Origin: a virus | Taxonomy: Duplodnaviria; Caudoviricetes | Virus record (IMG/VR): IMGVR_UViG_3300050119_000254 | Coordinates: 1-52,593 of that record | Reading direction: 5' to 3' (one strand) | Length of the DNA: 52,593 nt | Part shown: in pieces, positions 13,432 through 38,601 of the stretch | Position numbering within the stretch: position 1 is the first letter of the stretch | How the letters are laid out: each line of letters starts with the position of its first letter | Notes under the pieces: model-generated | The model's input: the letters and a program-made list of their open reading frames with translations, nothing else | Told to the model about the DNA's origin: nothing | Database searches by the model: none | Program-made: the position numbers and the translations under genes

Positions 13432-14434
13432 GCTGAGATGGCGAAAGAACAGTAACGGTGGACTATGGACTGATTGGGCAACGGACAGATATCGTCGAAC
13501 CACAGAGTCCGATTACATATTTGTCATATCGAGAGACAACGCGGGGTGGTTGTGGCGTTGTTACAACGTTGTTGACGATACCATATTTTTCGGTACGGTG
13601 ACGATGCGCATTGCAGCGATCGAACAAGGCGAGAAGATGGCCGCACAGACGATTGGAGACAGCGATCAAGACCTCCCTGAGTCGCTGTTGGAAGCCAACG
13701 AATATCACGACGCTAGTGACCCCAAGTCGTTGACGCGCGCCACGGTTGGGTACGGTAACCGTCTTTTCAAGATCGAGCTCGGAATATATGGTAATGAGTT
13801 TCTGGTGGCGGGAGACTGTGCTGGTGATGCGATGGATGCGCTAATTGACTGGCTGGATGGTCATAACTCTCCGTGGGTGATGACGCCAGAACAAGAGGCA
13901 TCGCTCGATGACTGTGAGGGTGAGCACTATCTCAGTGGTGGTAATTACGGGAAACACTTGGATTGCGGTGCTGAGGAAGTATGGATTACACAGGTCCCGG
14001 CTAAGGATGCTTTCCTGACCCGTGAGGAACAGCGCGCGATCGCAAGGGCGAAAGCTGCGGAGCTCGATCTCCCAGAGTCATCGAAATGGTCCAAAAACTG
14101 GCTGTTCGATCTTGTCTATCGCAGCCTCGATGGCGTTAATCGAGAGTTATTAGCTGCTCGAATATCCGAGCAAGCTAAGTGGATCATTATTGCCGGGAAA
14201 GTGACAGGTAAAGGTTCCTTGCAAAACACAGTGGATCGAGACATTGGTTACCAACGAGCGGCTGAATGGGCGGGCCGCGATTGGGGTCGCATCATTACTA
14301 GGCTACAAGGATTGCGTGACGGTCGCAATTATCGTCCGGTCAGAATCGACCTCACGCCCGGTGTGGACTGGATGTCGGGAGGCCCGCAAGACCTTCCGGA
14401 ATCATTAGCTGACCAACTATTGGGGGCCAAATGA
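13424..14434 (+). CDS. three-module DLPES polyprotein with DLPESLADQLLG tail
   Basis: DLPES at 13670, 14066, 14390. Confidence 0.75.
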   Translation: MRKLRWRKNSNGGLWTDWATDRYRRTTESDYIFVISRDNAGWLWRCYNVVDDTIFFGTVTMRIAAIEQGEKMAAQTIGDSDQDLPESLLEANEYHDASDPKSLTRATVGYGNRLFKIELGIYGNEFLVAGDCAGDAMDALIDWLDGHNSPWVMTPEQEASLDDCEGEHYLSGGNYGKHLDCGAEEVWITQVPAKDAFLTREEQRAIARAKAAELDLPESSKWSKNWLFDLVYRSLDGVNRELLAARISEQAKWIIIAGKVTGKGSLQNTVDRDIGYQRAAEWAGRDWGRIITRLQGLRDGRNYRPVRIDLTPGVDWMSGGPQDLPESLADQLLGAK

Positions 14435-14778
14435 GCAGCGCCATCATCAGATTCCTGACGCAAAGGTCATCCATCCAGACCCGCAACCACCGCGACATCC
14501 TGGACCTGACCGGCACAGTGCCGCCGTCTACTCCACCGCCTCCGGGACCGCGACAGGTGTTGCTCACTCATTCACCGGGTCAGATCGACGTTCGAATCCT
14601 CTATCCGGACGGCCAATCTGAGATGATGTACCATGGTCCGGACCTGTTCCTGAAGCTCACCCAGAGAGGCTTACCTGCTTACAAGCTGGAGCGAGTCATC
14701 GATCATCTTTGGAACTTTTATCAAGTTTATGTGGACTGTGACGAGGAGCCGAGGCCACCAAAAATTCAGCTCGAATGA
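14431..14778 (+). CDS. hypothetical protein
   Basis: ATGA-coupled ORF. Confidence 0.65.
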   Translation: MSSAIIRFLTQRSSIQTRNHRDILDLTGTVPPSTPPPPGPRQVLLTHSPGQIDVRILYPDGQSEMMYHGPDLFLKLTQRGLPAYKLERVIDHLWNFYQVYVDCDEEPRPPKIQLE

Positions 14779-16043
14779 GAAACTGGCAAATCAACAGATT
14801 TGGTGAGTGGAAGTATCATTCGTCGAGCGGCATCCATCGCCAGTACCATGTTCACATATGGCGCGAAAAACAGTGGGTGTGGGAGGCGTCCCACAAAGTC
14901 GATAATTGTCACCATGTGATTGGTAGAGGACATTCAACTAACGTTGAGCTGGCTGCCCAAGAGGCTGAGAAATCGATCCGGACGCACGCTGCCACGCTTC
15001 AAGTGGATCAGGATCTTCCGGAATCTATGGGCGGTGAGGTGGTTCTTAAACCCGGTGACGTTATCTTGGTGCGAGGGATCTCCAGAACATATCGCGAGGT
15101 AGTCGATCATTGCGCCCATGATTTGGGAACCGTATACGCGCGCTGCACCGGGATAAGGGACCCTCGGTTACATGGTGGAGCATGGCCAATAAGCCAAGTG
15201 ATCGCTGTCAAGATCGACGGTCAGATGCGGCCCGTTAAATATGACGAAGATACTAGTAAGTTTTGGTGGATCGACAACGATCTTCCGGAGTCCACAACGT
15301 CATTGAATTGGAAGGAAGACCCAGATGGCGCGTGGAGCGCTCGCCTTGGCACCAAATACGAGGCAGCTATCAGGAAGAAATCTGACAAATGGGTGTGGGA
15401 TGTGACCTACAATCTTGGAATGTTTAGCTGTGAGCAATGTGGATACGGGGCGGAAGACACTATTGAACAAGCCAAGATGAAAGCTGCTGATACGATTCGC
15501 GGTGAAATTTCAAGCCGCCGCAGTGTCAGTCAAGATCTTCCAGAGTCCGCGCCGGAATGGGTGGACATGACCATCACCTCCCTGAACGTTGACGCTGACG
15601 GTAAATATCTTGGATTTTATCGAGGCGAGTTTACGTGGCCGCGTAATATTGGCAATCTGATCATTAAGGTCCCATCGATAACGTTTGACGGAGACATTTG
15701 GGTGGAGGGTGACATCGTGGCGGATGGTGACGTCAATGTGGCGGATAATGAGATCTCGGCAGGCGGCAACATCCTAGTGAAGGGCGACATCGTGGCGGGC
15801 GGCATCATAGCGAACGGCAACGTCTGGGCGAACGGCAAAATCGTAGTGGATGGTGGTAACATCAGCGTGGGAAAGGGAGGTAGCGTCCGATCACCACACA
15901 TCACGGCGTTACGCGTTTATACAAATTATGACCGACACGACGTCGTTGATGGTCAGATCGTGCGGAGATCTGGCGCTAGGACTGGACAAAAGTCTAGGGG
16001 CCAAGATCTTCCGGAATCATTGGCTGACCGGTTGCTCGGTTAA
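14775..16043 (+). CDS. four-module DLPES polyprotein (two Trp-rich, one SH3-like, one bactofilin-like beta-helix) with DLPESLADRLLG tail
   Basis: DLPES x4; GDI.V.G repeats in the last module. Confidence 0.75.
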   Translation: MRNWQINRFGEWKYHSSSGIHRQYHVHIWREKQWVWEASHKVDNCHHVIGRGHSTNVELAAQEAEKSIRTHAATLQVDQDLPESMGGEVVLKPGDVILVRGISRTYREVVDHCAHDLGTVYARCTGIRDPRLHGGAWPISQVIAVKIDGQMRPVKYDEDTSKFWWIDNDLPESTTSLNWKEDPDGAWSARLGTKYEAAIRKKSDKWVWDVTYNLGMFSCEQCGYGAEDTIEQAKMKAADTIRGEISSRRSVSQDLPESAPEWVDMTITSLNVDADGKYLGFYRGEFTWPRNIGNLIIKVPSITFDGDIWVEGDIVADGDVNVADNEISAGGNILVKGDIVAGGIIANGNVWANGKIVVDGGNISVGKGGSVRSPHITALRVYTNYDRHDVVDGQIVRRSGARTGQKSRGQDLPESLADRLLG

Positions 16044-16105
16044 CGGTCAATCGCCGTCGCTTTAGGTTGCCATTGTATTATGGTCGCTTTGCCACAGCTT
16101 TGCCA

Positions 16106-16112
16106 CTAAATA
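16106..16112 (+). promoter_or_regulatory. putative late promoter CTAAATA
   Basis: 7 nt upstream of the prohead protease ATG; resembles the T4 late promoter TATAAATA. Confidence 0.5.
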
Positions 16113-16119
16113 TCGAGGC

Positions 16120-18054
16120 ATGAAACCAGCAAAGCCTGCAGGATGGCAACCGTTGATTGAAGAGAAAATTTTTCGCCCCATTGGGGAGCCCGTGTTGGTG
16201 GAGTCCGCCGAGCTAGGTCGCAAGGTCTTGCGGCAGCATGGCGTCATCCAATCGTACACCCAGCGCAACCAGAATGGTCGGCTCTATCCGAAGAAGCTTT
16301 GGGAGGCGCTATTCAAGCCGGACAGCGACTTCATGGAACGGCTCCAGAGTCGCGCCATGGTCGGGCTTCTGGAGCATCCGGAGGACGGGATCACCAGGCT
16401 CGACCGAAGTCCTAGCCATCTGATGACGGAAGTCCATTTTGCCTCGCCCAAGGAGATCACGGAATCCCGCAAGTCCGACCCCAAGCACCCGTTGGAGGAA
16501 GGCGACATCATTGGGACGCTCGAAGTGATCGAAGGGACCCGTAACGGCGATGAGCTCAAGGCGCTCATCGAAGCCAAGGTTCAAATCGGCGTCAGTTCAC
16601 GAGGCGGCGGAACGCTCAAGGAGGATGGGGAGGGCCACACCGTCAACGAGGATTATGAATGCGAGACCTGGGACGTCGTGCAGTCGCCATCCGTCAGCCG
16701 CGCCATCCCGCGCAAGACCGAGGTCACTCATGAATCGGCTCCGGTCCCTCCCGTCCCACCAGTCGTGGAAGCTGTTCCGCCAACTCCTGCCCCGGTCGTG
16801 GAGTCCAAGGTTCCGGTCGCTCCAGTGGTCAAGCTTTTCTGCGAGAACGGCGCCGTCCGTTACGAGATCGTCGAGGATGCCACCGGCTCCCATGTCTACG
16901 ACCGCAAGGATGAGAAAAATCTTCACGACTGCGCCACTCCGGAACTGGCTCACCAATGGGTCATGGAAAACCTTAAGGCATCCGCTCCCGCCCAAGCATT
17001 ACCGCTCGCGCCTGTCGTCAAGCCTTCCACGCCAGCTCCCTCGGTTCCACTTCAAGAATCAACCAACACCACTATTATGTCACATCGCGATAAGCTCCGC
17101 ACCCTCGACCTGGACGTCACCCGTCTCACTTCCACGCCCGTCAAGGGTTTGAAGCCATCGGCCAAGTCGTCCATGTTCGAATCTATCACCAGCCTCCGCG
17201 TCGAGATCGCGGGCGTCCTCAAGGAGGACTCGACCCTGCAGCCGATCGCCGACAAGCAGCTCAAAAGGCTCACCGAATACGAGGACGAGCTCGATGCCGA
17301 GCCGATTCCGGAGGGGCCTGTCTCCCACGAGGGTGACGGCGACTTCGAGGACTTTGATCACGCCGACGAAGGTGGTGGTGACGACGATGTGATGTGCCGG
17401 GCCGCCGCCAAGCTTCGGACCCTCGGTGACGAGGGGGATGAGGAAGCTGCCGGATTGGCCGATGAACTCGATGCCGTGTGCGGTGATGGTGATGAACCGC
17501 CCATGGATGACGTCCCACCGCCCGCCCCTGAGGGCGACGCTCCTCCGATGGAGTCGAAGCTCCGCAGCTTCATCAAGAGGATGAAGGGCAAGTACGTCAA
17601 GCTTGAGAGCGCTCATCGCCGCCTGACCGCCGCGACCGCCACGCTGTTGGAGCGCTACCGGACCGTCAAGAAGCACCTCACTGAGAACGGTGGGGGGCGT
17701 CCCGCCGACCAGCAGTCGATCGAGGAATATGAGAATGCTGCCCGCGACATTGCGGACCGCTATAACCGCCATATGATCGAGATGGGCAAACTGCTCATGC
17801 AGGCCAAGCAGCCTGGACTCTATGAGGCCAATGAGGACCGCTTCAAGCGCGTCCGCACCTGGAAGCAGTTCGGCGAGGTCTCCCAGCAGGTCGTGGCCAA
17901 GCGTCCGCTTCGCGAGGGCGTCCAGCCTCCGGTCAAGAAGCCAGCATCGAGCTCCTCCACCAATCCGCCGCCCGATCCGCCTCTCACGGAAACCGTCCAC
18001 CCGTCCGTCATGATGGCAACGCGCGCCCGCCACCGGTCCACCATTACGGGATAA
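16120..18054 (+). CDS. prohead protease (T4 gp21-like) fused to an acidic/coiled scaffold region
   Basis: NQNGRLYP, GLLEHP, GVSSRGGG, WDVVQSPS motifs; directly upstream of the capsid gene. Confidence 0.9.
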   Translation: MKPAKPAGWQPLIEEKIFRPIGEPVLVESAELGRKVLRQHGVIQSYTQRNQNGRLYPKKLWEALFKPDSDFMERLQSRAMVGLLEHPEDGITRLDRSPSHLMTEVHFASPKEITESRKSDPKHPLEEGDIIGTLEVIEGTRNGDELKALIEAKVQIGVSSRGGGTLKEDGEGHTVNEDYECETWDVVQSPSVSRAIPRKTEVTHESAPVPPVPPVVEAVPPTPAPVVESKVPVAPVVKLFCENGAVRYEIVEDATGSHVYDRKDEKNLHDCATPELAHQWVMENLKASAPAQALPLAPVVKPSTPAPSVPLQESTNTTIMSHRDKLRTLDLDVTRLTSTPVKGLKPSAKSSMFESITSLRVEIAGVLKEDSTLQPIADKQLKRLTEYEDELDAEPIPEGPVSHEGDGDFEDFDHADEGGGDDDVMCRAAAKLRTLGDEGDEEAAGLADELDAVCGDGDEPPMDDVPPPAPEGDAPPMESKLRSFIKRMKGKYVKLESAHRRLTAATATLLERYRTVKKHLTENGGGRPADQQSIEEYENAARDIADRYNRHMIEMGKLLMQAKQPGLYEANEDRFKRVRTWKQFGEVSQQVVAKRPLREGVQPPVKKPASSSSTNPPPDPPLTETVHPSVMMATRARHRSTITG

Positions 18055-18102
18055 ACCATCGGACCACCTACTCACCACCAACCACCTCTCACCATCAAGC
18101 AT

Positions 18103-19563
18103 ATGAACGGAATCTCCTCAAATCAACTCGCCGAAACCTTCGTCCGGGGCACTCGGCTGGCCGAAACCAGCATGGGCATCGGCGTCAAGGATAGTCTCAT
18201 CGAGGCCAAGGGCTGGAAGGAGATGGTGGCCGGGATCAAGGACGACAAGAAGCGGGCTCTCTGCGCCATCATGTTGGAGAACTACCGCAAGTACCGCAAA
18301 GGGCTTGATGAGGCGACCAGCACCCTGCAGGTCGGCAACTTCGATAAATGGGCGTTCCCGATCATCTCGATCGTCAGTGAGAACCTGATCGCTCAGGACC
18401 TGGTCAGCGTTCAACCGCTGGAGGGTCCCTCAGGATTGGTGTTCTTCATGAACTTCACGGCGGGCCAGTCCAAGGGCAACGTCCAACGCGGCGCCAAGAT
18501 CTGGGATGCCCGCACCGGCCATGCGGAGCGCTTCCTCGACAGCAGCGACCGGGTTCCCAATGAGCCAATTGTGTGCACGACTGGAGACCTGAGCAGTGGA
18601 GCGGCGATCAGCCTCGCCTATGCGCCAGTGGTTCCCGGCACGGTCTCGGTCGCCATCGGCACGTCAGTCCTGCGCGATGATGGAAACGGCAACCTGGTCG
18701 TGGTCTCAGGGCCAGCAGGCGGCGCCGGAATTGACGTGGGCGACATCGACTACCCGACCGGGTTGATCAGCTTCACGACCGCTGAGAACACGGCCACGGT
18801 CGCCGAGTTCAGCTACAATTACAATCCCGAGCTCAACCCCGAGGCCCAGCAGGTCGACTTTGAGATTCAGTCCAGCCCCATCTACGCTCAGGAACGGAAA
18901 CTGCGCGGGCGCTGGTCCACTGAGGCCGCTCAGGCCCTGGAAGCGCTTCACCAGATCAACGCCGAGGACGTAGTCTCAACCGCGATCACCAACCATCTGC
19001 AATGGGAAATCGACCGCGAGATCATCGAGGACCTCCGCAGGCAGGCCGGAGCCGGTCTGGTCCGTTGGTCCGCCCAGATCCCGGCGACCAGTTACATTTC
19101 GTACACCGAGCACAAACTGTCGTTCATCGACGCATTGGTGACCGGAAGTAACTTCATCTACCGGGCGACCAACCGGGCAAAGGCTAACTGGGTCCTGGCG
19201 GGCATGCAAGCGACCAACATCCTGGAGACCCTTCCCCAGTTCGAGCCCCATGGTGGCGCCGATACCGAAGTGGAGGGCGTGAGCATGCTCGGCACGATCG
19301 GTCGCACCAAGGTCTACAGCGATCCTCACTACAATGTCGACGAGGCCCTGATGGGATACAAGGGCAACGACTTCGTTCGCACCGGCTACATCTTCGCGCC
19401 TTGGATCTTGCTCTACTCCACGATGCTCATCACACTGGATGACTTCATCGCCCGCAAGGGGTTTGCTAGTCAGTACGGGAAGAAGCTCGTCAATTCGAAG
19501 TTCTATTGCAAATTGCAACTCAGCGGTTTCTCGGCGGAGTTTGGCAGCCTCGCCGGTACGTAA
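18103..19563 (+). CDS. major capsid protein (T4 gp23-like)
   Basis: LIAQDLVSVQPLEGPSGLVF, RKLRGRWSTEAAQAL, EIDREII, GYIFAPW. Confidence 0.95.
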   Translation: MNGISSNQLAETFVRGTRLAETSMGIGVKDSLIEAKGWKEMVAGIKDDKKRALCAIMLENYRKYRKGLDEATSTLQVGNFDKWAFPIISIVSENLIAQDLVSVQPLEGPSGLVFFMNFTAGQSKGNVQRGAKIWDARTGHAERFLDSSDRVPNEPIVCTTGDLSSGAAISLAYAPVVPGTVSVAIGTSVLRDDGNGNLVVVSGPAGGAGIDVGDIDYPTGLISFTTAENTATVAEFSYNYNPELNPEAQQVDFEIQSSPIYAQERKLRGRWSTEAAQALEALHQINAEDVVSTAITNHLQWEIDREIIEDLRRQAGAGLVRWSAQIPATSYISYTEHKLSFIDALVTGSNFIYRATNRAKANWVLAGMQATNILETLPQFEPHGGADTEVEGVSMLGTIGRTKVYSDPHYNVDEALMGYKGNDFVRTGYIFAPWILLYSTMLITLDDFIARKGFASQYGKKLVNSKFYCKLQLSGFSAEFGSLAGT

Positions 19564-19589
19564 GCAATCGTCTCCGGTATTTCCATCAC

Positions 19590-19621
19590 GGTCGGGCCGA
19601 CTCGCAAGGGTCGGCCCGACC
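19590..19621. terminator. GC-rich hairpin between convergent genes
   Basis: GGTCGGGCCGACTC-GCAA-GGGTCGGCCCGACC; no clear U-tract. Confidence 0.65.
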
Positions 19622-19625
19622 TGTA

Positions 19626-20507
19626 TCAGCTAATCCGTAGTGGATATGGCAGTGGCTTGGTTAGATCCAATTGATGGATGCAAACTCCGTGCACATGCTT
19701 ACTATGATTACAGTTGGCACATAGACATTGGAACAGTCCGGCGTCGTTGCCATCTCGCGCAATCGTTCGATACAACTTACCGCCCCGTAATCCGTTCTCG
19801 CTACGCCCTTCGCCGAATATATGATCGACGTTCAATCGTGTGAATCCGTCTTCCCCACAACACACGCATTTATTTCCAAGTGCAGCGAGTGCAGCCACTC
19901 TGGATATGCGATAGTCTTTGTGCACTCCCTTACCAACCCACTCTAGCGTAATGAGTTTGTGTTGCTGACAATTGCGACACATCGTTTGGAGATTATCGGG
20001 GAAACCGGACTTCACTAACATGTGATAATTGTTGCCGCTAAATCGGCGACCGTTGGTACGTGCTTTTCGCTCTATTGCGCCATCGCTGTCGATATGATCG
20101 AGCGTTAAGAATTCCACCGGTAAAACCTTATCGCAACCAACACAGGTGCGACCATAATGATCAAACACTGTGGATATATGCAGTTCGCGCCGCGCCCGTA
20201 CGCACTTTCGTTGTGCGGCTAATTGTCTTTGGTGCCGTTCTTCCTTTGTTAGTTTGGGAGGCAGTGGATGTAACAACCGATAAGTAGCATGTCGAGCCTT
20301 CTCGGCAGCCAAACGTTGCTCTCGGTGCTCCTGATAGTATTTCCCTTGCGTCGCTTGCTTCTTGGCCTTTACCTCTGGCTTAGCGCCTTGCTTGCGAGCG
20401 GACTCACGGCGAGCTACAGGGTTGGCAGCATAACGGGCACGGGCCTGAGCCTTGATCGTCTCATGGTGCTCGGCGCGATACTGACGCATATATTCGGCTG
20501 TTGCCAT
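19626..20507 (-). CDS. HNH-type homing endonuclease (two HNH units)
   Basis: CVGC..LTLDHI..QTMCRNC and CVCC..NVDHI..QCLCANCN. Confidence 0.85.
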   Translation of the reverse strand: MATAEYMRQYRAEHHETIKAQARARYAANPVARRESARKQGAKPEVKAKKQATQGKYYQEHREQRLAAEKARHATYRLLHPLPPKLTKEERHQRQLAAQRKCVRARRELHISTVFDHYGRTCVGCDKVLPVEFLTLDHIDSDGAIERKARTNGRRFSGNNYHMLVKSGFPDNLQTMCRNCQQHKLITLEWVGKGVHKDYRISRVAALAALGNKCVCCGEDGFTRLNVDHIFGEGRSENGLRGGKLYRTIARDGNDAGLFQCLCANCNHSKHVHGVCIHQLDLTKPLPYPLRIS

Positions 20508-20556: not shown

Positions 20557-21396
20557 ATGATATTAACACCAGAACAACGAGAACACCGTCGCGCCACCAG
20601 ACAGGAGCGTCGCCGACTTAACAGAGAGGCCAACAACGAAGCGCATCAAAAATTGCTTCAAAGAGGTGGTCGATATATGGAGTTACACGGCAGCAAGTAT
20701 ATCGGTAGATATGTGAAGGGTAGTAAACATTGGCGCGATGAGAACGTTGAGTGGGTGAATTTCCGCAACTCTGTGCTGGAATTGCGAAAAAAGTATTTGT
20801 GTTTGGCCCAATACGGCGGTAAATGCGTCGGGTGCGGAGAAACCCACCCGTATCGGCTGACGTTCGACCATGTTAACGACGATGGGGCCGACGAACGACG
20901 GAAGGGTGTCAAGATATACCCATGGTTGATCAGGAACAATTTCCCCAAGGATATTATCCAATGCTTATGCTGGAATTGTCAGCAGTTCAAGAGACCGCGC
21001 CAGGAGGGTACATATTTTGATATGTTACATCGGGGAATGGTAACAGCGCTTGGTGGCAAGTGCGTTACTTGCGGAATTGATAACTTAAGGCTCCTAACCG
21101 TGGATCATCTTGATGGTGGCGGAAAGCAACACATGCGGACGATCGGCGCAAGACGCCTCTATAACGAAGTGATCAAACATATTGCGGATGGAAAATCTGG
21201 CGTCTATGCGGCCAAGTGCATATCTTGCAACAGCGCGTCCGGCATCATCAGGGTGCGCTACCCAACTATGAAGGAGCGGTTTGAGAAATATCGGGAACAC
21301 TTGAACCCGGAAGATATTCTACTGATGGAACGGGATATATTGGCCGCTGAGCTACTCACCGCCTACCATCATGACGTTACTCAAGAGAGGCGATAA
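20557..21396 (+). CDS. HNH-type homing endonuclease (two HNH units)
   Basis: YGGKCVGC..LTFDHV..QCLCWNC and LGGKCVTC..LTVDHL..CISCN. Confidence 0.85.
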   Translation: MILTPEQREHRRATRQERRRLNREANNEAHQKLLQRGGRYMELHGSKYIGRYVKGSKHWRDENVEWVNFRNSVLELRKKYLCLAQYGGKCVGCGETHPYRLTFDHVNDDGADERRKGVKIYPWLIRNNFPKDIIQCLCWNCQQFKRPRQEGTYFDMLHRGMVTALGGKCVTCGIDNLRLLTVDHLDGGGKQHMRTIGARRLYNEVIKHIADGKSGVYAAKCISCNSASGIIRVRYPTMKERFEKYREHLNPEDILLMERDILAAELLTAYHHDVTQERR

Positions 21397-22345: not shown

Positions 22346-22359
22346 CGCTACTTATTGTG

Positions 22360-22675
22360 ATGAAAGCTTTGCGATATCATGTGAAACCTGGCGACAAGGG
22401 TCCGTTCTATGCTTATTCGGAAGACTTTATCGGCGCGCTGGTGGGACCTTTTACCACTTTGGAAGAAGCTTCATCGGCACGTGAGAAGGATGCAAGCCTA
22501 TACCGATTACGGGGACGACTTCCTTGGTGTGGTGACGCCGAGCCATCCAGAGTTCGAAGAGCTTAAAGATAATGGGTTGGGGATCATCTCGCCTGAACGG
22601 GATAGAAACATGAATAAGTCCAAGCTTGATGCGTCGGACTTGCCGGAATCACTGGCCGATCGATTGCTCGGATAA
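22360..22675 (+). pseudogene. frameshifted single-module protein with DLPESLADRLLG tail
   Basis: MKALRYH..GPFTTLEEA joins HRHVRRMQAY..DLPESLADRLLG if one base near 22471 is removed. Confidence 0.6.
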
Positions 22676-29589: not shown

Positions 29590-30135
29590 GTGAACCCATT
29601 CGATTTCGCTCAATTACTGGAATCCGGTGACAAGTCATATAGTTGCACAATGTTAATGATGCCGGAAGAGGTTTGCCGGATCATCCAGCAAGTTCAGGAC
29701 GATATTGACGAAGATGATCTTGCTGGCGACGGGTTGGAGACGGAATATCACACGACAATCATGTACGGAACGCATACCGACGACCTTGACGAGATCAAGG
29801 AGGCACTGCGGTCAACCGGCATTAAGGAAGTAAGGTTCAAGATCGGCGACCTGACCAGCTTTCCGCCGTCCGTTTACTCGGATGGCGCTTCGGTCCTCAA
29901 ATATGACGTGGAGAGCGACGACCTGAACGAGCTCCACGAAGCTCTGGCCAAGCTTAAGTGCACGGAATCGTTTAAAAATTATCACGCGCATTGTACAGTC
30001 GCGTATGTCGATAGTGGTGTGGTCGACCGTTACACCGGCAAACCTTTCCCGAAGCGCAGGGAGTTGACATCCGATCAAGTTATGTTTTCAACGTCCGACC
30101 GCAAAAAGACGACGTTCAAGCTGTCCGACCCATGA
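29590..30135 (+). CDS. 2H phosphodiesterase, Acb1/T4 gp57B-like, with putative capsid-targeting leader
   Basis: two HxT motifs (YHTTIMYG, AHCTVAY); leader MNPFDFAQLLE. Confidence 0.75.
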   Translation: MNPFDFAQLLESGDKSYSCTMLMMPEEVCRIIQQVQDDIDEDDLAGDGLETEYHTTIMYGTHTDDLDEIKEALRSTGIKEVRFKIGDLTSFPPSVYSDGASVLKYDVESDDLNELHEALAKLKCTESFKNYHAHCTVAYVDSGVVDRYTGKPFPKRRELTSDQVMFSTSDRKKTTFKLSDP

Positions 30136-30656
30136 CGCCTGCGACCTATGCGGAATTGTTGGAGGACAAGATCCGGATCATCCATTACTCAGATGAGATG
30201 TTCGATGACGACGAAGAAATGGACGACGACTGGAAATATGAGGCCAGGCAATCGATCGGTGAGCAAGTTACATGCTGCTTTCATTCGAACGATCTACGGT
30301 GGGTGAACAATATGGATATCGGGATGCTGGCCTTGGGTCGGGACCCAGACGAATATTGGGACCCGTTCGTGGCCGGGTGCACAGTCTATCGGGAATACCA
30401 GGACCCAGATAGTAACGAGCATGTCTACAGTTTTGACATCGCGGTTCGCAAGAGCCATCAGAGAGGCACGATCGGGTGGAGCCTAGTTAAGGCATCGATC
30501 CAGGAGGCGAGATCGCTGGAATGTGACGTCATCAAGCTTTATGTCATCAACCCGTTGATGTACAAGATGCTGACGAAAATGTTCGGGTTCCGGGACGAGG
30601 AAGAGCCTCCGGATGCCCGCAACGGGTTCCGAGCCCATGTAGTGCTCTATCTATAA
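30132..30656 (+). CDS. GNAT acetyltransferase with putative capsid-targeting leader
   Basis: FDIAVRKSHQRGTIGWSLV acetyl-CoA motif; leader MTPATYAELLE. Confidence 0.75.
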   Translation: MTPATYAELLEDKIRIIHYSDEMFDDDEEMDDDWKYEARQSIGEQVTCCFHSNDLRWVNNMDIGMLALGRDPDEYWDPFVAGCTVYREYQDPDSNEHVYSFDIAVRKSHQRGTIGWSLVKASIQEARSLECDVIKLYVINPLMYKMLTKMFGFRDEEEPPDARNGFRAHVVLYL

Positions 30657-30658
30657 GG

Positions 30659-30904
30659 ATGAGCCCGACCGACTTTGATCAACTGCTGGAGGATCGACCA
30701 GGAACAACCACGCTCGACAATTTGTCACCGGCGGGGCAACGGCAGGTGCTCAAGATGGTGCAGGACTATCTGGCCACCCATCCGATCCCGGAGTCCGGCA
30801 ACCCAGACTTTACCGAGCTGGCCCGTCAGACTGGATTAACTGACCAGTCGCTGATCGAGGTGCTCAATCAGGTGGCCAGCCGTCGTCAACCTGTTCACGC
30901 GTAA
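30659..30904 (+). CDS. small HTH-like protein with putative capsid-targeting leader
   Basis: leader MSPTDFDQLLE; FTELARQTGLT. Confidence 0.6.
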   Translation: MSPTDFDQLLEDRPGTTTLDNLSPAGQRQVLKMVQDYLATHPIPESGNPDFTELARQTGLTDQSLIEVLNQVASRRQPVHA

Positions 30905-30929: not shown

Positions 30930-32179
30930 AAACTAGAAACAAATCATTGATGTGCCGAGGTCGTCAAATCATATACATTCTTTAGGCCAGTGATCGCAGC
31001 ATTCAAATATCGGCTCTACCTCAATGTTGATCAGCGCATCGCGCTGGCCCAGCACTTTGGCTGTGTCCGGTGGGTGTACAACTGGGCGCTCGCTAAGAAG
31101 TCCACCGCATGGAAAGACGAAAAGAAAACGATTTCACGGTTCGATCTCAGTGCCGAGCTACCAAAATTGAAGCGTGCCGAAGGCACGGAGTGGCTGGGCG
31201 AGGTCACCGCCCAATGCCTCCAGCAGTCGTTACGGTGCCTTGATCAGGCATACCAACACTTCTTCAAGGACGGTCGTGGGTTTCCGAAGTTCAAGCGCAA
31301 AGATGGTTGCCAATCGTGCCAGTTCCCCCAAGGCGTGAAGACTGATTTTGAAGATGATCGATTGACGTTCCCACACATCGGTTCGGTGAGAGCAGTGTTC
31401 GACCGCCGGTTTCATGGCAAGATCAAGACCACAACGGTCTCAAAGACATCCACTGGTAAGTACTTCGCATCGATCACCGTTGACACCGGTGTGGACGTTC
31501 CCGAAACGGAGCCGTACTCGATGCATTCATCCGTGGGCGTCGATCTTGGTCTCACACACTTTGCCACGCTCTCCACCGGAGAGAAAATCGACAATCCACG
31601 TCTAGCGCGCAAGGCCAAGCAGGCGTTGGCACGCGCCCAACGTCGTTTATCTCGTTGTAAGGCCGGTTCCAAGAACCGCGCGAAGCGGAAGCTGAGGGTG
31701 GCGCGCATTAGTGAGCGCGTCGTTAATCAGCGACAAGACTTTCTTCATCAGTTATCCACGAGGTTGATTCGCGAGAATCAAGCGATCTGCCTTGAGACGC
31801 TCAGCGTCGAGAACATGAAGAAGAACCGTTGCCTCGCGTTTAGCGTGAGCGACGTGGGCTGGTCCACTTTTGTGGACCTATTGAAGTACAAAGCCATCAA
31901 ATACGGTAAAACCATATTGAGAATTGGACGGTTCGAGCCGTCGTCCAAACAGTGCTCATGCGGTGTCGTGAACCACGAACTGACGCTCCGCGATAGAACA
32001 TGGACGTGCAGGTCATGTGATGTCACGCACGATCGTGACGTGCTGGCGGCCCAGAACATACGCCGAATGGCGTTCGACAACTTAGTAGGGCAGGATATGC
32101 CCGAACTTAACGCCTGCCGAGATTCCGCCATAGCGGGGTCGATGAAACAGGAAGTATCAAACCAGACCAGATACAAATC
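30930..32179 (+). mobile_element. tnpB-only (IS1341-like) element flanked by ATCATC(ATC) direct repeats
   Basis: no tnpA; ATCATCATC at 30921-30929 and 32177-32185. Confidence 0.75.
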
Positions 32180-32273
32180 ATCATCGTTTGTTGCGGCGGC
32201 CACGGGCTGTGGCGCGGATGGGGTTATGGTAATGGTGGGTTGCTGGGTTTGCTGCTCATTGTGCTGCTTCTGA
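30990..32273 (+). CDS. tnpB: TnpB RNA-guided endonuclease
   Basis: AFKYRLY HTH, GVDLG, ICLETL, Zn finger CSC..CRSC, HDRD.LAA.NI; RuvC D-E-D intact. Confidence 0.95.
   Translation: MIAAFKYRLYLNVDQRIALAQHFGCVRWVYNWALAKKSTAWKDEKKTISRFDLSAELPKLKRAEGTEWLGEVTAQCLQQSLRCLDQAYQHFFKDGRGFPKFKRKDGCQSCQFPQGVKTDFEDDRLTFPHIGSVRAVFDRRFHGKIKTTTVSKTSTGKYFASITVDTGVDVPETEPYSMHSSVGVDLGLTHFATLSTGEKIDNPRLARKAKQALARAQRRLSRCKAGSKNRAKRKLRVARISERVVNQRQDFLHQLSTRLIRENQAICLETLSVENMKKNRCLAFSVSDVGWSTFVDLLKYKAIKYGKTILRIGRFEPSSKQCSCGVVNHELTLRDRTWTCRSCDVTHDRDVLAAQNIRRMAFDNLVGQDMPELNACRDSAIAGSMKQEVSNQTRYKSSSFVAAATGCGADGVMVMVGCWVCCSLCCF
32082..32179 (+). ncRNA. putative omega/reRNA 3' scaffold (5' boundary unknown)
   Basis: overlaps the tnpB 3' end; near-identical copy at 49007-49099 with a compensatory stem change. 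Confidence 0.65.
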
Positions 32274-32295
32274 TGATGCTTTTGCGCCACTAATC

Positions 32296-32890: not shown

Positions 32891-32911
32891 GCGTCGAGCA
32901 TTCGTGGATGG

Positions 32912-33489: not shown

Positions 33490-33497
33490 CCAGATAC

Positions 33498-33716
33498 TTA
33501 GCCGATGACCGGTTTGCGGAGCCCGGACTTAGAGATCTTAACCTTCTTGTCGGCAGGTCTGCTGCGATTAACCTGAGTGCGTCGGACTGCGATCAGGTTG
33601 AGAGCCCGCTCCCGATTCTTGGGCGTCATCCCGGCGCGGCCCTCGATCTCCTGTTTGATGCCATCCAATTCTTCGCCGCTGGTGGCGTCCTTGATTGATT
33701 GTTCGGTTCTGGTCAT
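33498..33716 (-). CDS. small basic protein
   Basis: MTRTEQSIKDATSGEELDGIK..NRERALNLIAVRR. Confidence 0.65.
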   Translation of the reverse strand: MTRTEQSIKDATSGEELDGIKQEIEGRAGMTPKNRERALNLIAVRRTQVNRSRPADKKVKISKSGLRKPVIG

Positions 33717-34339
33717 ATGATTGCTTTCCTGGTTGTAAATCGTCTCGGCTGCTCGATACTGATCCCACCAGTCCGCAGGCCGGTAGTCAATCGTTCGCGC
33801 ACATTTAGTGCTATTACACGACACGACACACACAGCGGTTGGATGTTCTCGACCATGTTCTCACCCAGTAACTCCAGTGGGACTACGTGGTCGATCGTGA
33901 TCTTGGGTGGGATCATGCAGCACCGGAGACATTGGCCACCTGATATCAATAAAATAAATGTTCCACTGGTCCTTGGTCAGAGAATTGGGAAGCCGACGCT
34001 TTGCAGCGCGACGTTTAGCATGTGTGACTGCCTTGCTACGACGCCTTCGCTCCCTATATTCAGCGTCTTCTGCTAACCTTTGCTTAAGTCTAGTCGCACT
34101 GGTAACATAGTCTTGTTTCTTCTGCTCCGGAGTCCGTTTAGCGCGTCGTGCAATGCATTGTTCGGAGTGCCAACCAGGTTGACGAGATTTGAGTAATGAT
34201 TGGGCGAACTGGAAACATTGGTCGCATTGCAACCACATATTGTGCCCATGTTTGACTTATGTTTAATTGTTCGCAGTGCATCTGGATGTGCATCAGCCCA
34301 CCGTTTGTTACACTCTTTATCTTTTTCGTACCGGGTCAC
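33717..34339 (-). pseudogene. HNH endonuclease with about three frameshifts
   Basis: pieces in different frames: RRAAK..LTKDQW / CLRC..TIDHVVPL..NIQPLC / SCNSTK. Confidence 0.75.
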
Positions 34340-34344
34340 TGACT

Positions 34345-35361
34345 TTACTTTTTCTTCAGGGCGGCTAGCTTAGCCTTCATCTTTTCGATGTCGGCATCAT
34401 ATTTGGCGAACAGTTCGGCGTCGTGCGCCAGCTTTTCGTTGGCCTTCTGCAGCTCTACTTCCGGGTCGGGAGCTCCGTTTTGCCGTTCCCGATATTTGAT
34501 CGCCATCTTCTTGAGATCGACCCGGTAATTCTCTTCCTGTTTGCCAGACTCGTCCCACGCATCTTGATCGATGAATGATTCGACCTTCTCCCGTACTATC
34601 TGGACAAGCGCTCGTGGTTCGACGCCGTCCAGCTCGTAGGAATCATCTCCATATTGTTCCTGAAACTTTTTGAACCTGGCGTCGGTTTGCTTGGCCGGGT
34701 TCGAAGGGATGTTCATAGACTGGACCTGATCCATGTTGAGCGCCACCGTGTGCACGTTGACGTCACCACGGACAAACATGGTAGTGCGTTCAGCCACGTC
34801 ACGTCTCATGTCAAAGCCCGATGGATCAGCGTCGCCTAGGTACACGATGTGTAGTTCCTTGCCATTTTCCGCGTGGTGGCGCATCCTCATGCCGGTCTCG
34901 TAAAACGTGGAACTGCTGCAATACCCCTTGTTGGCTGCAAATGGGACGTCGAGTTCCCGGCACAGTGGCACCAGAATGCCCTCAAGAGCCTGCTTCTCAA
35001 CTTGAACGCAGACAAAGCAGCTCTGGTTCTCCCACCGGTCGACTCGAAAGCTGGCTGCCGCTGACTCCACAATATCGGCAGGGGAATCCCAGTGAGGGTT
35101 GATCCGAGTGGACCGTCCACGGTCTTTAATCGCGTCCCAATCGATCAGCCCAGCGAGACGGGCGTCGCTGATCAGGCTTCCAAGATTATTGTAAGATTTT
35201 TGGCTGTTGGGGAACAGGTTAGCAACGACGCATTGGTAGTACAGCTGTCGCAGCGTCAGGTCGAAGCCATCCGCCTGGTAGGCGACGATGATGGCTTCGC
35301 AGCGGGCGATGAGCTCCAGCGACTTGGTCGTGAACTTGCGGGCAATGAAGAATTCTTTCAT
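34345..35361 (-). CDS. Topo VI-A/Spo11-like wHTH plus TOPRIM protein
   Basis: LTLRQLYYQ, VEKQAL, GYCS, YLGDADPSG. Confidence 0.75.
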   Translation of the reverse strand: MKEFFIARKFTTKSLELIARCEAIIVAYQADGFDLTLRQLYYQCVVANLFPNSQKSYNNLGSLISDARLAGLIDWDAIKDRGRSTRINPHWDSPADIVESAAASFRVDRWENQSCFVCVQVEKQALEGILVPLCRELDVPFAANKGYCSSSTFYETGMRMRHHAENGKELHIVYLGDADPSGFDMRRDVAERTTMFVRGDVNVHTVALNMDQVQSMNIPSNPAKQTDARFKKFQEQYGDDSYELDGVEPRALVQIVREKVESFIDQDAWDESGKQEENYRVDLKKMAIKYRERQNGAPDPEVELQKANEKLAHDAELFAKYDADIEKMKAKLAALKKK

Positions 35362-35484
35362 AGAGTGGTGAGTGGGATCAAACCGTAGTAGATGAGCATT
35401 GGAATGCGTTCGATGAAATCGTTGACGTGCATTTCCTGGAGAGCGTTGCGCACCTCCTCGTCTGGTTTATGGCTCAAGTTCATA

Positions 35485-35706
35485 TTAAGCGAACTCCACT
35501 TTGGGAGCGTAGAATCGAATAAGGTCATGCCACTTATCGTCCTCGTCCTTCGGGATGTCGTTTTCACGCATGAAATGCTTGACTGCCTCCATTTCGGCGT
35601 CGTGGGACCGGGTCGCCCGGTGCTCACCAGTCACCGAGGTGAAGCCAAACATTTCAACGGAATAGTGATAAACGTGGGAGTGGGCGGAGTATTTGGAGTT
35701 GATCAT
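35485..35706 (-). CDS. hypothetical protein
   Basis: small ORF in the minus-strand operon. Confidence 0.5.
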   Translation of the reverse strand: MINSKYSAHSHVYHYSVEMFGFTSVTGEHRATRSHDAEMEAVKHFMRENDIPKDEDDKWHDLIRFYAPKVEFA

Positions 35707-35715
35707 GCCACATTA

Positions 35716-35928
35716 TTAGCAGGTAGGCTTGCGTTTGTCAAGTTTTATGCGCCCACAGGTGGGCGTTGGCTCATCCCGATAGTCGATCGGAGCCATTTGC
35801 TCGCGGGCTCCATCCGCGTCGAACCACCACCAGCGACCGATAATGTCAAACTGCCCCTTGGGAAAGCACGCGTGGGTCGACGCGACCAACGTCAATCCGA
35901 CAACAGCCGACGTCCAGATGGTGCTCAA
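35716..35928 (-). CDS. hypothetical protein
   Basis: small ORF in the minus-strand operon. Confidence 0.45.
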   Translation of the reverse strand: MSTIWTSAVVGLTLVASTHACFPKGQFDIIGRWWWFDADGAREQMAPIDYRDEPTPTCGRIKLDKRKPTC

Positions 35929-36416
35929 TACGATTTGGTGAATCCGCGACGATGTCGGGAAGGTTCCACTTCGTCCTCGCCGTTGGATTCTTGAACGGCG
36001 TCGGCTGCTCTCTTCTCATTGGCGGCCTCCTCGAACGCCTTCTCGACCATGGCCAACTCGTCACCCTCTTGCTTGGGGAGGCGGCAGAGCACCCCCATCG
36101 GGGTTTCATCCAGCTTGTACATGATCGCCTCAGCGGCGCCGTTGGGAATCCTGGACGCAGCATGGACCATATAGATGACGATGTCACCGAGCTTGATGTC
36201 GACGCATTCGCTGCCGACTGAGATGACTTCTCCAATCCGGTACTTTTTGTCCACCATGTCGGTGCTGTCGCTTTCCGGGAGCAGCAACCCTTCCTTGGTC
36301 TTCGGGCTGCAATAATGGTTGGTGTCCTTGACGATGAACGATTGGCGGATCGCCACAGGCACGCCGAGCGGGATGAGGATGAGCTTATTGGTTGGTGGGA
36401 CGAGGTCTGGCTTCAT
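35925..36416 (-). CDS. GroES-like co-chaperonin
   Basis: KTKEGLLLPE mobile loop, GEVISVG, IKLGDIVIY. Confidence 0.75.
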   Translation of the reverse strand: MKPDLVPPTNKLILIPLGVPVAIRQSFIVKDTNHYCSPKTKEGLLLPESDSTDMVDKKYRIGEVISVGSECVDIKLGDIVIYMVHAASRIPNGAAEAIMYKLDETPMGVLCRLPKQEGDELAMVEKAFEEAANEKRAADAVQESNGEDEVEPSRHRRGFTKSY

Positions 36417-36837
36417 GCAAAAAAGAACGCAACCGCCATCGGATAACGGCGCAGGATAGCGCCAACATTATCATGGATCGGGTTACCCACTTCTTGTTCA
36501 GTTTCTGGGCGTTTCCCAGAATTGCATCAGCAAGCTCACCGGAATGGGAGTCACACCACTCCGGCCCCATCGCGTCCATCTTAGCGGCTAACGCCTTGCA
36601 AGCGCATGCTGTGGTGGGTTCGCTCATCCACGATAACAGCTTGGTCAGCTCAGTCCCAACGCCGCCGACTTGGGGAACTTGCTGGGCCGCGCTGGATGCC
36701 GTCACCTGGTGGGAGCACTCAAAATCTGCATCCGGTATTAGACCTTGTTGGACGAACGTCTCCCGGAACGCTCGGTCGGTCCGGCAGGCCACGCAGTGCG
36801 CCCGGCTCAGGCAATGGATTCCAAGGTTCCCGGTCAT
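36385..36837 (-). CDS. Cys-rich hypothetical protein
   Basis: HC..CR, GVGTEL..LL, CAC..MD..G..WC. Confidence 0.65.
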   Translation of the reverse strand: MTGNLGIHCLSRAHCVACRTDRAFRETFVQQGLIPDADFECSHQVTASSAAQQVPQVGGVGTELTKLLSWMSEPTTACACKALAAKMDAMGPEWCDSHSGELADAILGNAQKLNKKWVTRSMIMLALSCAVIRWRLRSFLHEARPRPTNQ

Positions 36838-38303
36838 GGGATTGAAACGGTGGCGTTACCGCCGCCATACAGGCTGGTCAGCGGATTGGTCGGTGGACAC
36901 GCCACAACGTTAGTCATGGACGTTCCTAGTGGCGCTCCGGAATTAACGGCAAACACGACAGCGTTGCCAAACGGGTCCGCAAAGTCTAGCGACACTATCG
37001 GTGACCATATTGCCATCCCGTCGACGATCGCACATGAAGCTCCAACCCCAAACACTCCTGATTGAATAATGGTAGGTGTTCCACTGCATCCGGGGTCTTG
37101 ATAGGATGTGATCGTGTATGAACCAACGTTTGAAGGCGCTGAGAAGTCGCTCCCGTTCCAGGTCAGCGATATGGCACCGTTTAGCCCGGAAAACGAGAAG
37201 GTGTACTGGCCTTGGCACCCGCACGATACTATTCCGGATAGCACGACCGTTACGGCGCCGCTGGTCGGACACATGTTCGTGGTCGTGGTCAGGCAGTGTG
37301 CTAATGGTTGGCTGGCCGGTGGGGGCGTCGGCGTCCCGTTGCCCTGCGCCATGGCCACGTAGAGTGGGGCGTTAGGGTCGCTGGGGAGCGTTACTGGCGC
37401 GGTCGCTGACCCATTAGTCAGCGACACAGTTTGCTGCTCGGCGACCGTCTGAGTGTTGCCCACTAAGATTGATAGCGTGGCGGACGTTGATCCGGGCATC
37501 GCTAAATCGGCGGTGACGACTTGTCCTGGCGCGTATAGGAGGGGCCGCACTGCAATCTCCTGTGTTATTGCGGGGGCAGACGGACCCGGTAGACAAGTGA
37601 ACGCTTGGCCGACAGCGCCGGTCACGGTTGCTGACACGGTTTCCGGGTCCGATGACGTGCAGGTTGTGGCATCCAACAGACTGGTTAATGCCAAGATAGG
37701 CTGTTGGTCCCCTAGAAACGGGGTTAAGCTCAGGGGGTTGCCGGTCAACGTTGAGGCGTTACCGAGTGCGTATCCATATACTGCTTTACCTGAGATCGAC
37801 CGTGGAATTAACCAGCTCGCGTAAGTGAGCCCGGATAATGCAGCGCAACCGTCGTAATTGAATGATTCTCCGGAGATGGTTAAGAGCGCCTCTGCCAGAT
37901 ATTGGAGCGCCCTCAGCGCCGCACAGGCTACCGGAAAGCTCTCCCAAGTGGCTCCGATGGCCAAGACGCCCATGACGGTGATCGCGGTAAGATCAATCAC
38001 CGTTACTGCTGGAGTCACGTAGTAGCCAGCGAGCGCCCGAATGGCGGTATGGACTTGTTGTGCCAATCCGTTACGGTCGGCAGGCGACGCCTCAATCGCC
38101 AGCGCGGTCAGTAGGTCGTTATAGTGATCCCTATCCGCTGCCGGATAGGCGGCAATCGATAGTATGGGAGGAGTTAGTCCGACTGCTAGATATCGCTGCC
38201 TCAGCGCGCACAATAACTCACCCAGTACGTTGCCATATGGGTTGGATGGCCACTCCAGCGTTCGCTTCTGCTGGCGCTGTAGTGGGAACGCGGCTCCTGG
38301 CAT
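36834..38303 (-). CDS. putative virion/tail-associated protein
   Basis: 489 aa, Thr/Ser/Gly-rich beta composition. Confidence 0.55.
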   Translation of the reverse strand: MPGAAFPLQRQQKRTLEWPSNPYGNVLGELLCALRQRYLAVGLTPPILSIAAYPAADRDHYNDLLTALAIEASPADRNGLAQQVHTAIRALAGYYVTPAVTVIDLTAITVMGVLAIGATWESFPVACAALRALQYLAEALLTISGESFNYDGCAALSGLTYASWLIPRSISGKAVYGYALGNASTLTGNPLSLTPFLGDQQPILALTSLLDATTCTSSDPETVSATVTGAVGQAFTCLPGPSAPAITQEIAVRPLLYAPGQVVTADLAMPGSTSATLSILVGNTQTVAEQQTVSLTNGSATAPVTLPSDPNAPLYVAMAQGNGTPTPPPASQPLAHCLTTTTNMCPTSGAVTVVLSGIVSCGCQGQYTFSFSGLNGAISLTWNGSDFSAPSNVGSYTITSYQDPGCSGTPTIIQSGVFGVGASCAIVDGMAIWSPIVSLDFADPFGNAVVFAVNSGAPLGTSMTNVVACPPTNPLTSLYGGGNATVSIP

Positions 38304-38304
38304 T

Positions 38305-38601
38305 TTAATTTAGTAAACGGTTGACCAGCGATTCCGGGAGATCCTGATCAGTTGATGTCGGTTGCACTGGTTTACCATCAACGATTTCACAACGGCGACC
38401 ACGGATGTAACAACGCTTGGTGGTGATGCTTCCTCCCACCCTGATGGTGAATTGCGCCCTGACCTCACCCTCTGCCCTGATGGCGCCCTTGAACCTTATC
38501 CGGGCGACCTCAATGGTCAGGTTATTGAGGTCCGCTGGTAATGTACCGGTATAGTAACATTGGGCGTTGACGTCTTTGGCGGTGATGGTGAGATCGGACA
38601 T
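38305..38601 (-). CDS. stand-alone beta-helix module with DLPESLVNRLLN tail
   Basis: paralog of the last module of 14775-16043. Confidence 0.7.
   Translation of the reverse strand: MSDLTITAKDVNAQCYYTGTLPADLNNLTIEVARIRFKGAIRAEGEVRAQFTIRVGGSITTKRCYIRGRRCEIVDGKPVQPTSTDQDLPESLVNRLLN

Follow-up and report, generated by a model that had tools for sequence, protein, structure and literature searches.

A candidate excisable C-terminal capsid-targeting tag joined to a recurrent DLPES site in an uncultured T4-type phage

Evaluating a 52.6-kb contig of an uncultured T4-type phage (IMG/VR record IMGVR_UViG_3300050119_000254; a genome fragment, its whole stretch of 52,593 nucleotides hereafter called the window), we found that four genes end in the residues DLPES running into a shared tail, S-L-[AV]-[DN]-[RQ]-L-L-[GN], and that DLPES recurs between small modules elsewhere. 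We interpret DLPE↓S (the arrow marking the candidate cut) as the cutting site of the phage's own gp21-like, scaffold-fused prohead protease, such that the site would link unrelated small modules into cargo polyproteins that enter the prohead and are cut apart inside it. The 8-10 residues after the last site would form a short amphipathic helix docking the uncut precursor to the assembling core (scaffold/protease or inner capsid surface), and the last cut would remove this helix. The tail would then be the C-terminal counterpart of the lineage's N-terminal leaders, with the Glu-X bond between tag and mature part following an N-terminal tag and preceding a C-terminal one. Comparing sequences, we judge cleavage at DLPE↓S by the gp21-like protease to be probable and a docking role of the tail to be close to evenly poised, tilting if at all towards the negative, while on the explanation as a whole, the tail as an excisable C-terminal capsid-targeting tag, we are evenly divided.

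DLPES sites, module borders and shared tails

Ranking the pentapeptides of the window's six-frame translation, DLPES came out on top with 14 copies, all in the frame and on the coding strand of long open reading frames (ORFs), compared with a mean of 0.1 and a maximum of 2 expected from 60 second-order Markov simulations. The copies fall in six ORFs (three in 3216-5552, two in 8178-9974, three in 13424-14434, four in 14775-16043, and one each in 22409-22675 and 38305-38601), such that 12 of the 14 lie between 3.9 and 16.0 kb, on the same strand as the protease and capsid genes and immediately before them. The remaining two, at 22.6 kb and 38.3 kb, fall beyond the head block in company with replication genes. 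Each of the five residues is encoded by varying codons (Leu as CTT, CTC, CTG or TTG; Pro as CCG, CCT, CCA or CCC), which points to selection acting on the peptide, and this variation led us to reject a DNA-level repeat as a candidate.

Four of the 14 copies lie no more than 16 residues from a C-terminus, a zone holding 4.1% of positions in the six ORFs (binomial P = 0.002). All four are followed by L-[AV]-[DN]-[RQ]-L-L, whereas unrelated residues follow nine of the ten internal sites, the exception being the copy at 9588 (Table 1). A sequence-only reading of this DNA had picked out the four gene ends (14434, 16043, 22675 and, on the minus strand, 38305) together with the internal copy at 9588; all are where it placed them, within a pattern of which it had seen only part. 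Synonymous codons diverge between tails as well (e.g., TTA GCT GAC CAA CTA TTG versus CTG GCC GAT CGA TTG CTC), so the conservation sits at the peptide level and does not reflect a recent DNA duplication. The tail helix is moderately amphipathic, with a hydrophobic moment of 0.33-0.58. The copy at 9588 is flanked by two candidate Glu-X cuts, LPE↓S and LLE↓T, that would release a peptide of 8 residues, and across the window and a companion contig, G001, two of three internal copies are followed by an [LI]-x-E↓T site of their own (SMVDRLLE↓T and SLADQLIDE↓T) and could, by their sequence, be excisable as peptides. The gene ending at 22675 may start at 22409, at the ATG of 22490 or, through a frameshift, in ORF 22357-22563; this last ORF (68 codons, in another frame) overlaps the tail-bearing one, its first 45 residues look like a strand-helix module, and the two may be joined by a frameshift that is either genuine or an artefact of assembly.

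Splitting the six DLPES proteins at DLPE↓S defined their modules, and each DLPES copy comes after a module by way of about ten polar residues. One module of roughly 85 residues is recurrent, with three strands including a W-x-W hairpin and then one long helix, while others are small and beta-rich, a zinc ribbon, or one of two beta-solenoids, an assignment resting on weak Bactofilin/FapA matches and on two solenoid-protein alignments (A2 and A3). The 422-residue polyprotein runs beta3-alpha, small beta-rich, beta3-alpha, beta-solenoid. Module identity drew nothing significant from Pfam, PHROGs, one ESM Atlas query and one fold search of the PDB; Pfam in particular gave no significant family and no peptidase domain in nine window modules or ORFs or in three G001 polyproteins, and the sole match of a G001 solenoid protein, to FapA, fell below the cutoff (24.6 bits against 31). 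A single-sequence model of the 422-residue polyprotein was poor (pLDDT 41) and served only as a secondary-structure hint.

Two further DLPES proteins join modules to domains found in relatives. In the 778-residue protein of ORF 3216-5552, the C-terminal domain recurs in the proteins of 570-802 residues with which the head block of relatives begins, and residues ~510-778 show a Cys/His pattern with the look of a SWIM-type zinc finger and no Pfam match. The protein of ORF 8178-9974 matches relatives of 172-275 residues over a span of only 102-216 residues, all before residue 270 as judged by eye, and its C-terminal modules are specific to the window phage.

The candidate cutter lies directly downstream of the two polyprotein genes 13424-14434 and 14775-16043, which sit inserted among head-module genes conserved and syntenic in all relatives. 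These relatives are contigs themselves: the window's capsid protein is at most 34% identical to those of the nearest deposited phages, 54-73% identical to those on seven IMG/VR contigs and 30% identical to that on an eighth. The N-terminal domain of the protease-scaffold protein matches PF03420 Peptidase_S77 (E 8.1e-10, 39 bits, cutoff 27), PF20034 Peptidase_S80 (27.5 bits, cutoff 23.4) and PHROG 207, head maturation protease (E 2.4e-26), and the long acidic coiled region that follows in the same ORF aligns with relatives as scaffold. In the protease-scaffold alignment (A1) the motifs HPEDG and GVSSRG are invariant in eight of eight relatives, the His of the first and the Ser-Ser of the second being putative catalytic residues. 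All eight also carry [LM]-x-E sites in the N-terminal region of the capsid protein, before its conserved core, and an L-x-E site followed by a conserved basic tail at the scaffold C-terminus (LTE↓TVHPSVMMATRARHR..., window 17980-18054).

T4 gp21 cuts after L/I-x-E (PMC9026906, in the passages available), and the related SPN3US protease is described as cutting after A-x-E with Ser preferred at P1' (PMC10052503, likewise). L-P-E↓S fits the L/I-x-E rule in 14 of 14 copies, a fit of sequence alone, and because a gp21-like gene also stands downstream, we take DLPES to mark probable protease cuts between modules. The proposal of the sequence-only reading that the tail is removed by cleavage at LPE thus gains comparative support. 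Cargo-like passengers are a leader-bearing GNAT enzyme of the window and, in the contig G006, an InPase domain with tags at both ends, and the proteins carrying DLPES are presumably packaged. InPase is among the domains predicted to be virion-packaged in the available text of Iyer et al. (PMC5512222), and that of PMC9026906 and PMC3012670 has the T4 leaders directing internal proteins to the core before being removed.

Between protease and scaffold (window 16800-17000) there is a small strand-helix insert, variable among relatives, that resembles the beta3-alpha modules of the polyproteins. The C-terminus of the G001 portal (L028:1068-3173, minus strand) resembles the scaffold tail (MHE↓SVQTVTAMRAKSRNRS), and the basic tails of scaffold and portal are possibly a second class of removable C-terminal tail, one that binds the capsid.

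Table 1. Coordinates in the window of the DLPES-linked tails, polyproteins, leaders and head genes
Feature	Position	Strand	Remarks
DLPES + tail SLADQLLGAK + stop	14390..14434 (stop 14432-14434)	+	DLPESLADQLLGAK; end of three-module polyprotein, ORF 13424-14434
DLPES + tail SLADRLLG + stop	16005..16043 (stop 16041-16043)	+	DLPESLADRLLG; end of four-module polyprotein, ORF 14775-16043
DLPES + tail SLADRLLG + stop	22637..22675 (stop 22673-22675)	+	DLPESLADRLLG; small ORF, start uncertain
DLPES + tail SLVNRLLN + stop	38343 down to 38305	-	DLPESLVNRLLN; end of 98-residue beta-solenoid protein, ORF 38305-38601
Internal copy DLPE↓SMVDRLLE↓T	9588..9623	+	DLPESMVDRLLE; in ORF 8178-9974
Polyprotein 1, 336 aa, three modules	13424..14434	+	DLPES at 13670 and 14066 as separators, at 14390 ahead of tail
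Polyprotein 2, 422 aa, four modules	14775..16043	+	DLPES after each module: 15012, 15279, 15534, 16005
778-aa protein	3216..5552	+	DLPES at 3927, 4473 and 4731 divide N-terminal modules from C-terminal domain conserved in relatives
Protein with DLPES at 9588 and 9747	8178..9974	+	N-terminal domain homologous to relatives' leader-bearing proteins
Prohead protease (Peptidase_S77/S80) fused to scaffold	16120..18054	+	Presumed DLPE↓S cutter; Pfam, PHROG, alignment A1
Major capsid protein, T4 Gp23 family	18103..19563	+	PF07068 Gp23, E 2.5e-48
Leader MNPKDFSKLVE of ORF 142-495	142..174	+	
Leader MTPATYAELLE of GNAT acetyltransferase, ORF 30132-30656	30132..30164	+	
Leader MSPTDFDQLLE of ORF 30659-30904	30659..30691	+	
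Leader MSPEKFNTLIE, 106 codons to stop at 46842	46522..46554	+	
18-codon ORF, leader-like (MTPILFNQLLE...), no mature part	1070..1126	+	MTPILFNQLLEAVAFIRR; also 3' end of ORF 851-1126

Homologues, sister contigs and the motif at either end

We evaluated homologues of the solenoid proteins, which are 46% identical to the window's 98-residue protein in alignment A2 and 44-67% identical to a further protein, P0003, in A3. The invariant columns of both alignments include DLPES, the next Leu and RLL, so that conservation of the tail among homologues, on which the sequence-only reading had staked its proposal, is borne out. Paralogues sharing only 44-49% identity have kept the tail. Scanning 1.84 billion representatives in full with a hidden Markov model (HMM) of A2 (E <= 0.001) returned 179 matches, only four of them below 1e-30 and three of these from the window or G001. 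The scan added one member to the tail family, P0003, which is encoded on a separate 5.9-kb contig and is 67% identical to the window's 98-residue protein. Between its first DLPES and its tail, P0003 has an extra module of about 100 residues with a DLPES of its own, and the tail still stands at the extreme C-terminus (SLAERLLDGV). A structure model of P0003 gives a confident solenoid to residue 133, with confidence collapsing at 134, before the DLPES at 139-143. More distantly, 11 weaker small matches were beta-solenoids of a generic kind that lacked both DLPES and tail (12 inspected of the 150 listed); P0003 was not found in the viral contigs, a word-index protein search with solenoid module plus tail gave no match, and one with the whole 422-residue polyprotein (E <= 10) returned itself only.

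This comparison bears on how such proteins grow. Comparing the window protein with P0003 suggests that cassettes are spliced in between joint and tag, and module accretion as such gains comparative support from the P0003 cassette at the DLPES joint and from the extra C-terminal modules of ORF 8178-9974. The earlier idea that an internal copy arose when a stop codon was lost finds no backing in the alignment, which looks instead like cassette insertion at a DLPES joint; the homologues do differ by a gained module, with the gain located before the tail and not after it.

N-terminal leaders with the consensus M-[NTS]-P-x-x-[FY]-x-x-L-[LIV]-E stand on at least four window proteins, and such leaders recur in relatives (six in L002 and five in L007). 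The window proteins with leaders (four) and those with tails (four) are disjoint sets. As to the likeness between tail and leader core that had been proposed, FDQLLE is indeed at the N-terminus of ORF 30659-30904, but FNQLLE belongs to an 18-codon ORF and not to a long gene; a hydrophobic-x-x-L-hydrophobic pattern is common to tail and leader, while beyond that [DN]QLL occurs in only two of five window leaders. This 18-codon ORF (1070-1126) overlaps, in another frame, the start of a SWIB/MDM2-domain gene (1123-1407), possible explanations being decay of a leader, a frameshifted fusion and an assembly error.

Two sister phages, G003 and G005, each carry four copies of [ST]LA[DE]R[LI]L, two of the four per genome within about 20 residues of an N-terminus and two internal after E↓S, and in both genomes LADRLL occurs without any DLPES. 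Their N-terminal copies include ...HRSLADRLLAE↓A and ...NITLADRLLTE↓A, with an L-x-E cut site directly after, and ...PNTLAERLLQ, with V-T-E↓T nine residues on; in G003, SLADR is among the four most frequent pentapeptides. In G006, a more remote relative, a 412-residue InPase protein (L066:7751-8989, minus strand; Pfam InPase E 3.2e-50) has the same I[FL]RSL[FL] motif in leader and tail, starting MNPYEASLKSIFRSLFCE↓A and ending TSE↓SVSILRSLLESL, and these two are the only terminal matches of the motif among the 53 ORFs of that contig. The suggestion that one helix may work at either protein end thus finds comparative support in the N-termini of G003 and G005, in both ends of the G006 protein and in the disjoint window sets. 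One rule fits these sequences: a hydrophobic-x-x-L-hydrophobic helix at a terminus or joint, with a single Glu-X bond to the passenger.

Taking this further, the lineage might use a position-independent excisable address label, a hydrophobic-[DN]-[RQ]-L-L helix that loads proteins from either terminus, with DLPES as protease site and standard connector, cassettes spliced between joint and tag, and the scaffold-fused protease perhaps as receptor, a proposal we regard as doubtful. If the scaffold-fused protease were the receptor, binding of substrate and recruitment of cargo would coincide in one step.

The contig G001 holds 12 DLPES and two variants, five of these 14 sites lying no more than 12 residues from a stop and leaving C-terminal peptides of 4-12 residues; its six-site polyprotein adjoins the portal gene. 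We first accepted G001 as an independent phage and then rejected this, as it is probably the same phage or species as the window: its GC content is 0.549 (window 0.550), the tetranucleotide correlation is 0.97 (0.94 between the window's two halves), a 146-bp element is 99.3% identical, and its genes (portal, terminase, sheath) complement those of the window. Completeness of G001 is rated at 31%, and portals from the contigs of the window's relatives match the G001 portal at 45-49% identity. The element in question, of ~100-146 bp, lies at 49057-49202 in the window and 3524-3669 in G001, with further copies at 49005-49103 and 32082-32185 in the window and 20333-20436 in G001, diverged copies thus occurring in both. 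A TnpB (OrfB_IS605) gene (window 30990-32273) has one copy at its 3' end, and the element may be a transposon end or the guide-RNA region of an IS605-type element; no Rfam family matched it at threshold. Also in G001 (~21007-21123, minus strand; L028), a 39-codon ORF, MNPSRL...DLPESLADRLLDIQ, overlaps, in another frame, the final ~55 bases of the portal gene, and a frameshift could give the portal this ORF's tail.

Elsewhere the window encodes UvsX, gp32, a helicase, an RNA ligase, a topoisomerase and DprA-like genes, and ORF 5434-7071 alone encodes both an HNH endonuclease region and a Mom-like domain for DNA modification (PF25680, 28.3 bits; PHROGs 2255 and 1384).

Points against a targeting tag and rival explanations

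Several observations weigh against a C-terminal targeting tag set off by DLPES. In G001, just 4 and 6 residues follow DLPE at the ends of two proteins (stubs SLLD and SLLGLF), so a C-terminal DLPES does not always come with the LADRLL helix, and DLPES itself may be the functional or recruiting unit, perhaps through the scaffold-fused protease. Because G001 is probably the same phage, independent support comes down to P0003, G003/G005 and G006. Relatives with capsid proteins 54-73% identical have no in-frame DLPES run near their head genes; eight relative loci hold one exact DLPES and four other [DE][LIVM]PE[SG] strings, at most two per locus, and use shorter sites such as PVTE↓A, which indicates that the protease family does not require the strict five-residue consensus. 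Their analogous polyproteins consist of small beta modules joined by these shorter Glu-X sites (e.g., QAPVTE↓A and PVRE↓A/S in L002 3598-5400). Pattern scans of DNA turned up no additional tails at a terminus, within a codon-restricted design (Ser fixed as TCN, limited variation) that will have missed many possible relatives: among viral contigs the tail pattern gave six loci, one of them true; among metagenome contigs there were 13 loci, nine with one internal copy, four with none in frame and none terminal; and among genome contigs nine loci, eight with one internal copy, one with none and none terminal. A DQDLPESL pattern found six loci, two being pieces of G001, three with a single in-frame copy and one with none, and the system looks rare among the three public collections scanned. 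In both structure models (P0003 and the 422-residue polyprotein) the tail helix appears at low confidence only, and cleavage, packaging and docking alike are things we infer for a phage that is uncultured. Co-folding the protease-scaffold protein (A1) with the 98-residue tail protein (A2) scored 0.00 with a mark of 0.32, run without controls, and speaks neither for nor against binding.

The stubs lend themselves to an account, which we consider unlikely, in which DLPE↓S is a prohead protease site and the tail has no docking role, being mere P' residues or a remnant of cassette shuffling, with recruitment through the site in the protease groove or through the modules. Part of the tail does overlap a general site preference, P2' being Leu or Met at 9 of the 14 window sites, and the P0003 cassette went in at the joint as shuffling would have it. 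Against this, P3'-P7' (ADRLL) are conserved only in the terminal and a few internal copies and not at the other nine internal sites of the window, the sister phages place LADRLL at N-termini and have no DLPES, and the synonymous divergence of the tails implies long-term purifying selection. That selection on the peptide also makes scarcely credible a repeat acting as DNA, as a recombination or regulatory site with the palindrome TTCCGGAA that is translated by chance. Eight of the 14 sites do read CTTCCGGAR with that palindromic core, and junctions coincide with cassette exchange; yet 14 of 14 copies keep to the coding frame and strand, the codons vary as described, and the antisense reading, DSGRS, merely mirrors the count of DLPES.

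The other two accounts dispute cleavage itself or its agent. DLPES plus tail could escape cleavage and act as a short linear motif for binding either a membrane or a hub protein, such as a host factor, the portal or some other phage protein, with the multi-module proteins staying intact, which strikes us as decidedly unlikely. A moderately amphipathic tail would suit such a motif, close relatives without DLPES are expected if it tracked a host-specific partner, and the solenoid modules weakly resemble FapA, MinC_C and bactofilin. Speaking for a cut, every copy has the Leu-x-Glu-small pattern of gp21-type sites exactly at module borders and mostly in the head-gene block, and the [LI]-x-E↓[AT] sites that follow LADRLL in the sister phages and two of three internal copies fit excision. 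Membrane-targeting helices typically carry basic and aromatic residues, which the tail helix lacks, and its shortness and acidic or neutral character tell against the membrane version. We consider it very unlikely that DLPE↓S is instead cut in the cytoplasm by another protease, of the host or of an unseen part of the phage, the proteins being ordinary early or anti-defence polyproteins and not head cargo. Two of the 14 sites stand among replication genes, and both the window and G001 are incomplete. No second protease family appeared, however, among 36 window ORFs or modules scanned with Pfam, 20 of them also with PHROGs, and the placement of two polyprotein genes between conserved head-module genes directly upstream of the protease, together with that of the G001 six-site polyprotein beside the portal gene, favours the prohead protease as cutter and head cargo as its substrate.

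Relation to known packaging systems and significance

On our reading the system resembles T4 capsid targeting with its gp21 protease; the departures are C-terminal placement, a fixed connector and a multi-module architecture. The window shares its capsid protein and protease families with T4 (IPI-III and Alt leaders; gp21, MEROPS S77) and has N-terminal leaders of its own, and in the available accounts of T4 a short terminal peptide likewise stands beside a Leu/Ile-x-Glu cut (PMC9026906) and unrelated passengers have only the tag in common (PMC3012670). Unlike the T4 tag, of about 10 residues at the N-terminus and ending at the cut, the four window tails are C-terminal and downstream of the candidate cut; the site is the fixed string D-L-P-E-S, which also joins two to four unrelated modules in one polypeptide, and the protease is fused to the scaffold.

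Removal of C-terminal pieces by Glu-specific prohead proteases has precedent in the published passages on T4, where Alt and gp21 itself are also processed at the C-terminus (PMC9026906), and on the SPN3US/phiKZ proteases (PMC10052503). For SPN3US these have only the protease itself with a C-terminal propeptide, 13 of 14 mapped cleavage sites removing N-terminal propeptides (PMC10052503). As far as those passages go, no function or shared sequence is assigned to such C-terminal pieces, whereas four unrelated window proteins share one C-terminal peptide.

Short C-terminal peptides also link proteins to shells elsewhere. In herpesviruses, whose capsid lineage is related, a short C-terminal tail of the scaffold docks this internal protein to the shell and is cut by the maturation protease; here, unlike there, the SLADRLL tails are on non-scaffold proteins, the putative cargo, and the phage scaffold has a different conserved tail of its own. 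Encapsulin cargo-loading peptides are short and C-terminal and load unrelated cargo into an HK97-fold shell, in a non-viral compartment, with a different consensus and without cleavage. Given the invariant Glu-Ser site before the tail, removal would set the phage tails apart from encapsulin cargo.

Polyvalent proteins, as set out in the accessible text of Iyer et al. 2017 (PMC5512222), comprise 2-15 unrelated domains, are encoded among late or structural genes and are predicted to be packaged and injected. To the extent of that text, the window proteins resemble them in having two to four modules each and in being encoded next to the protease and capsid genes or, in G001, next to the portal gene, with InPase and GNAT domains recurring. 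They differ in that polyvalent proteins have conflict or effector domains and often an embedded peptidase, no metallopeptidase or other processing domain being detected in the window polyproteins, whose modules are small, mostly of no known family and set apart by a constant site that a trans-acting protease would cut. Literature searches found no relevant match for the string DLPESL and, for phage polyproteins with prohead proteases, no description of such a system, supplementary cleavage-site lists lying outside the search.

In the passages available, T4-type capsid targeting is described for N-terminal peptides only (PMC3012670; PMC10052503; PMC9026906). A putative C-terminal tag and the evidence for either end are what the window locus adds. 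If our reading is true, the address can sit at either end of a protein, C-terminal processing such as that of T4 Alt gains a possible function, and foreign proteins that need a free N-terminus have a second handle for loading into phage heads. The DLPES connector, together with the orthologue that has gained a module, gives a concrete picture of how a phage may build and reshuffle cargo polyproteins.

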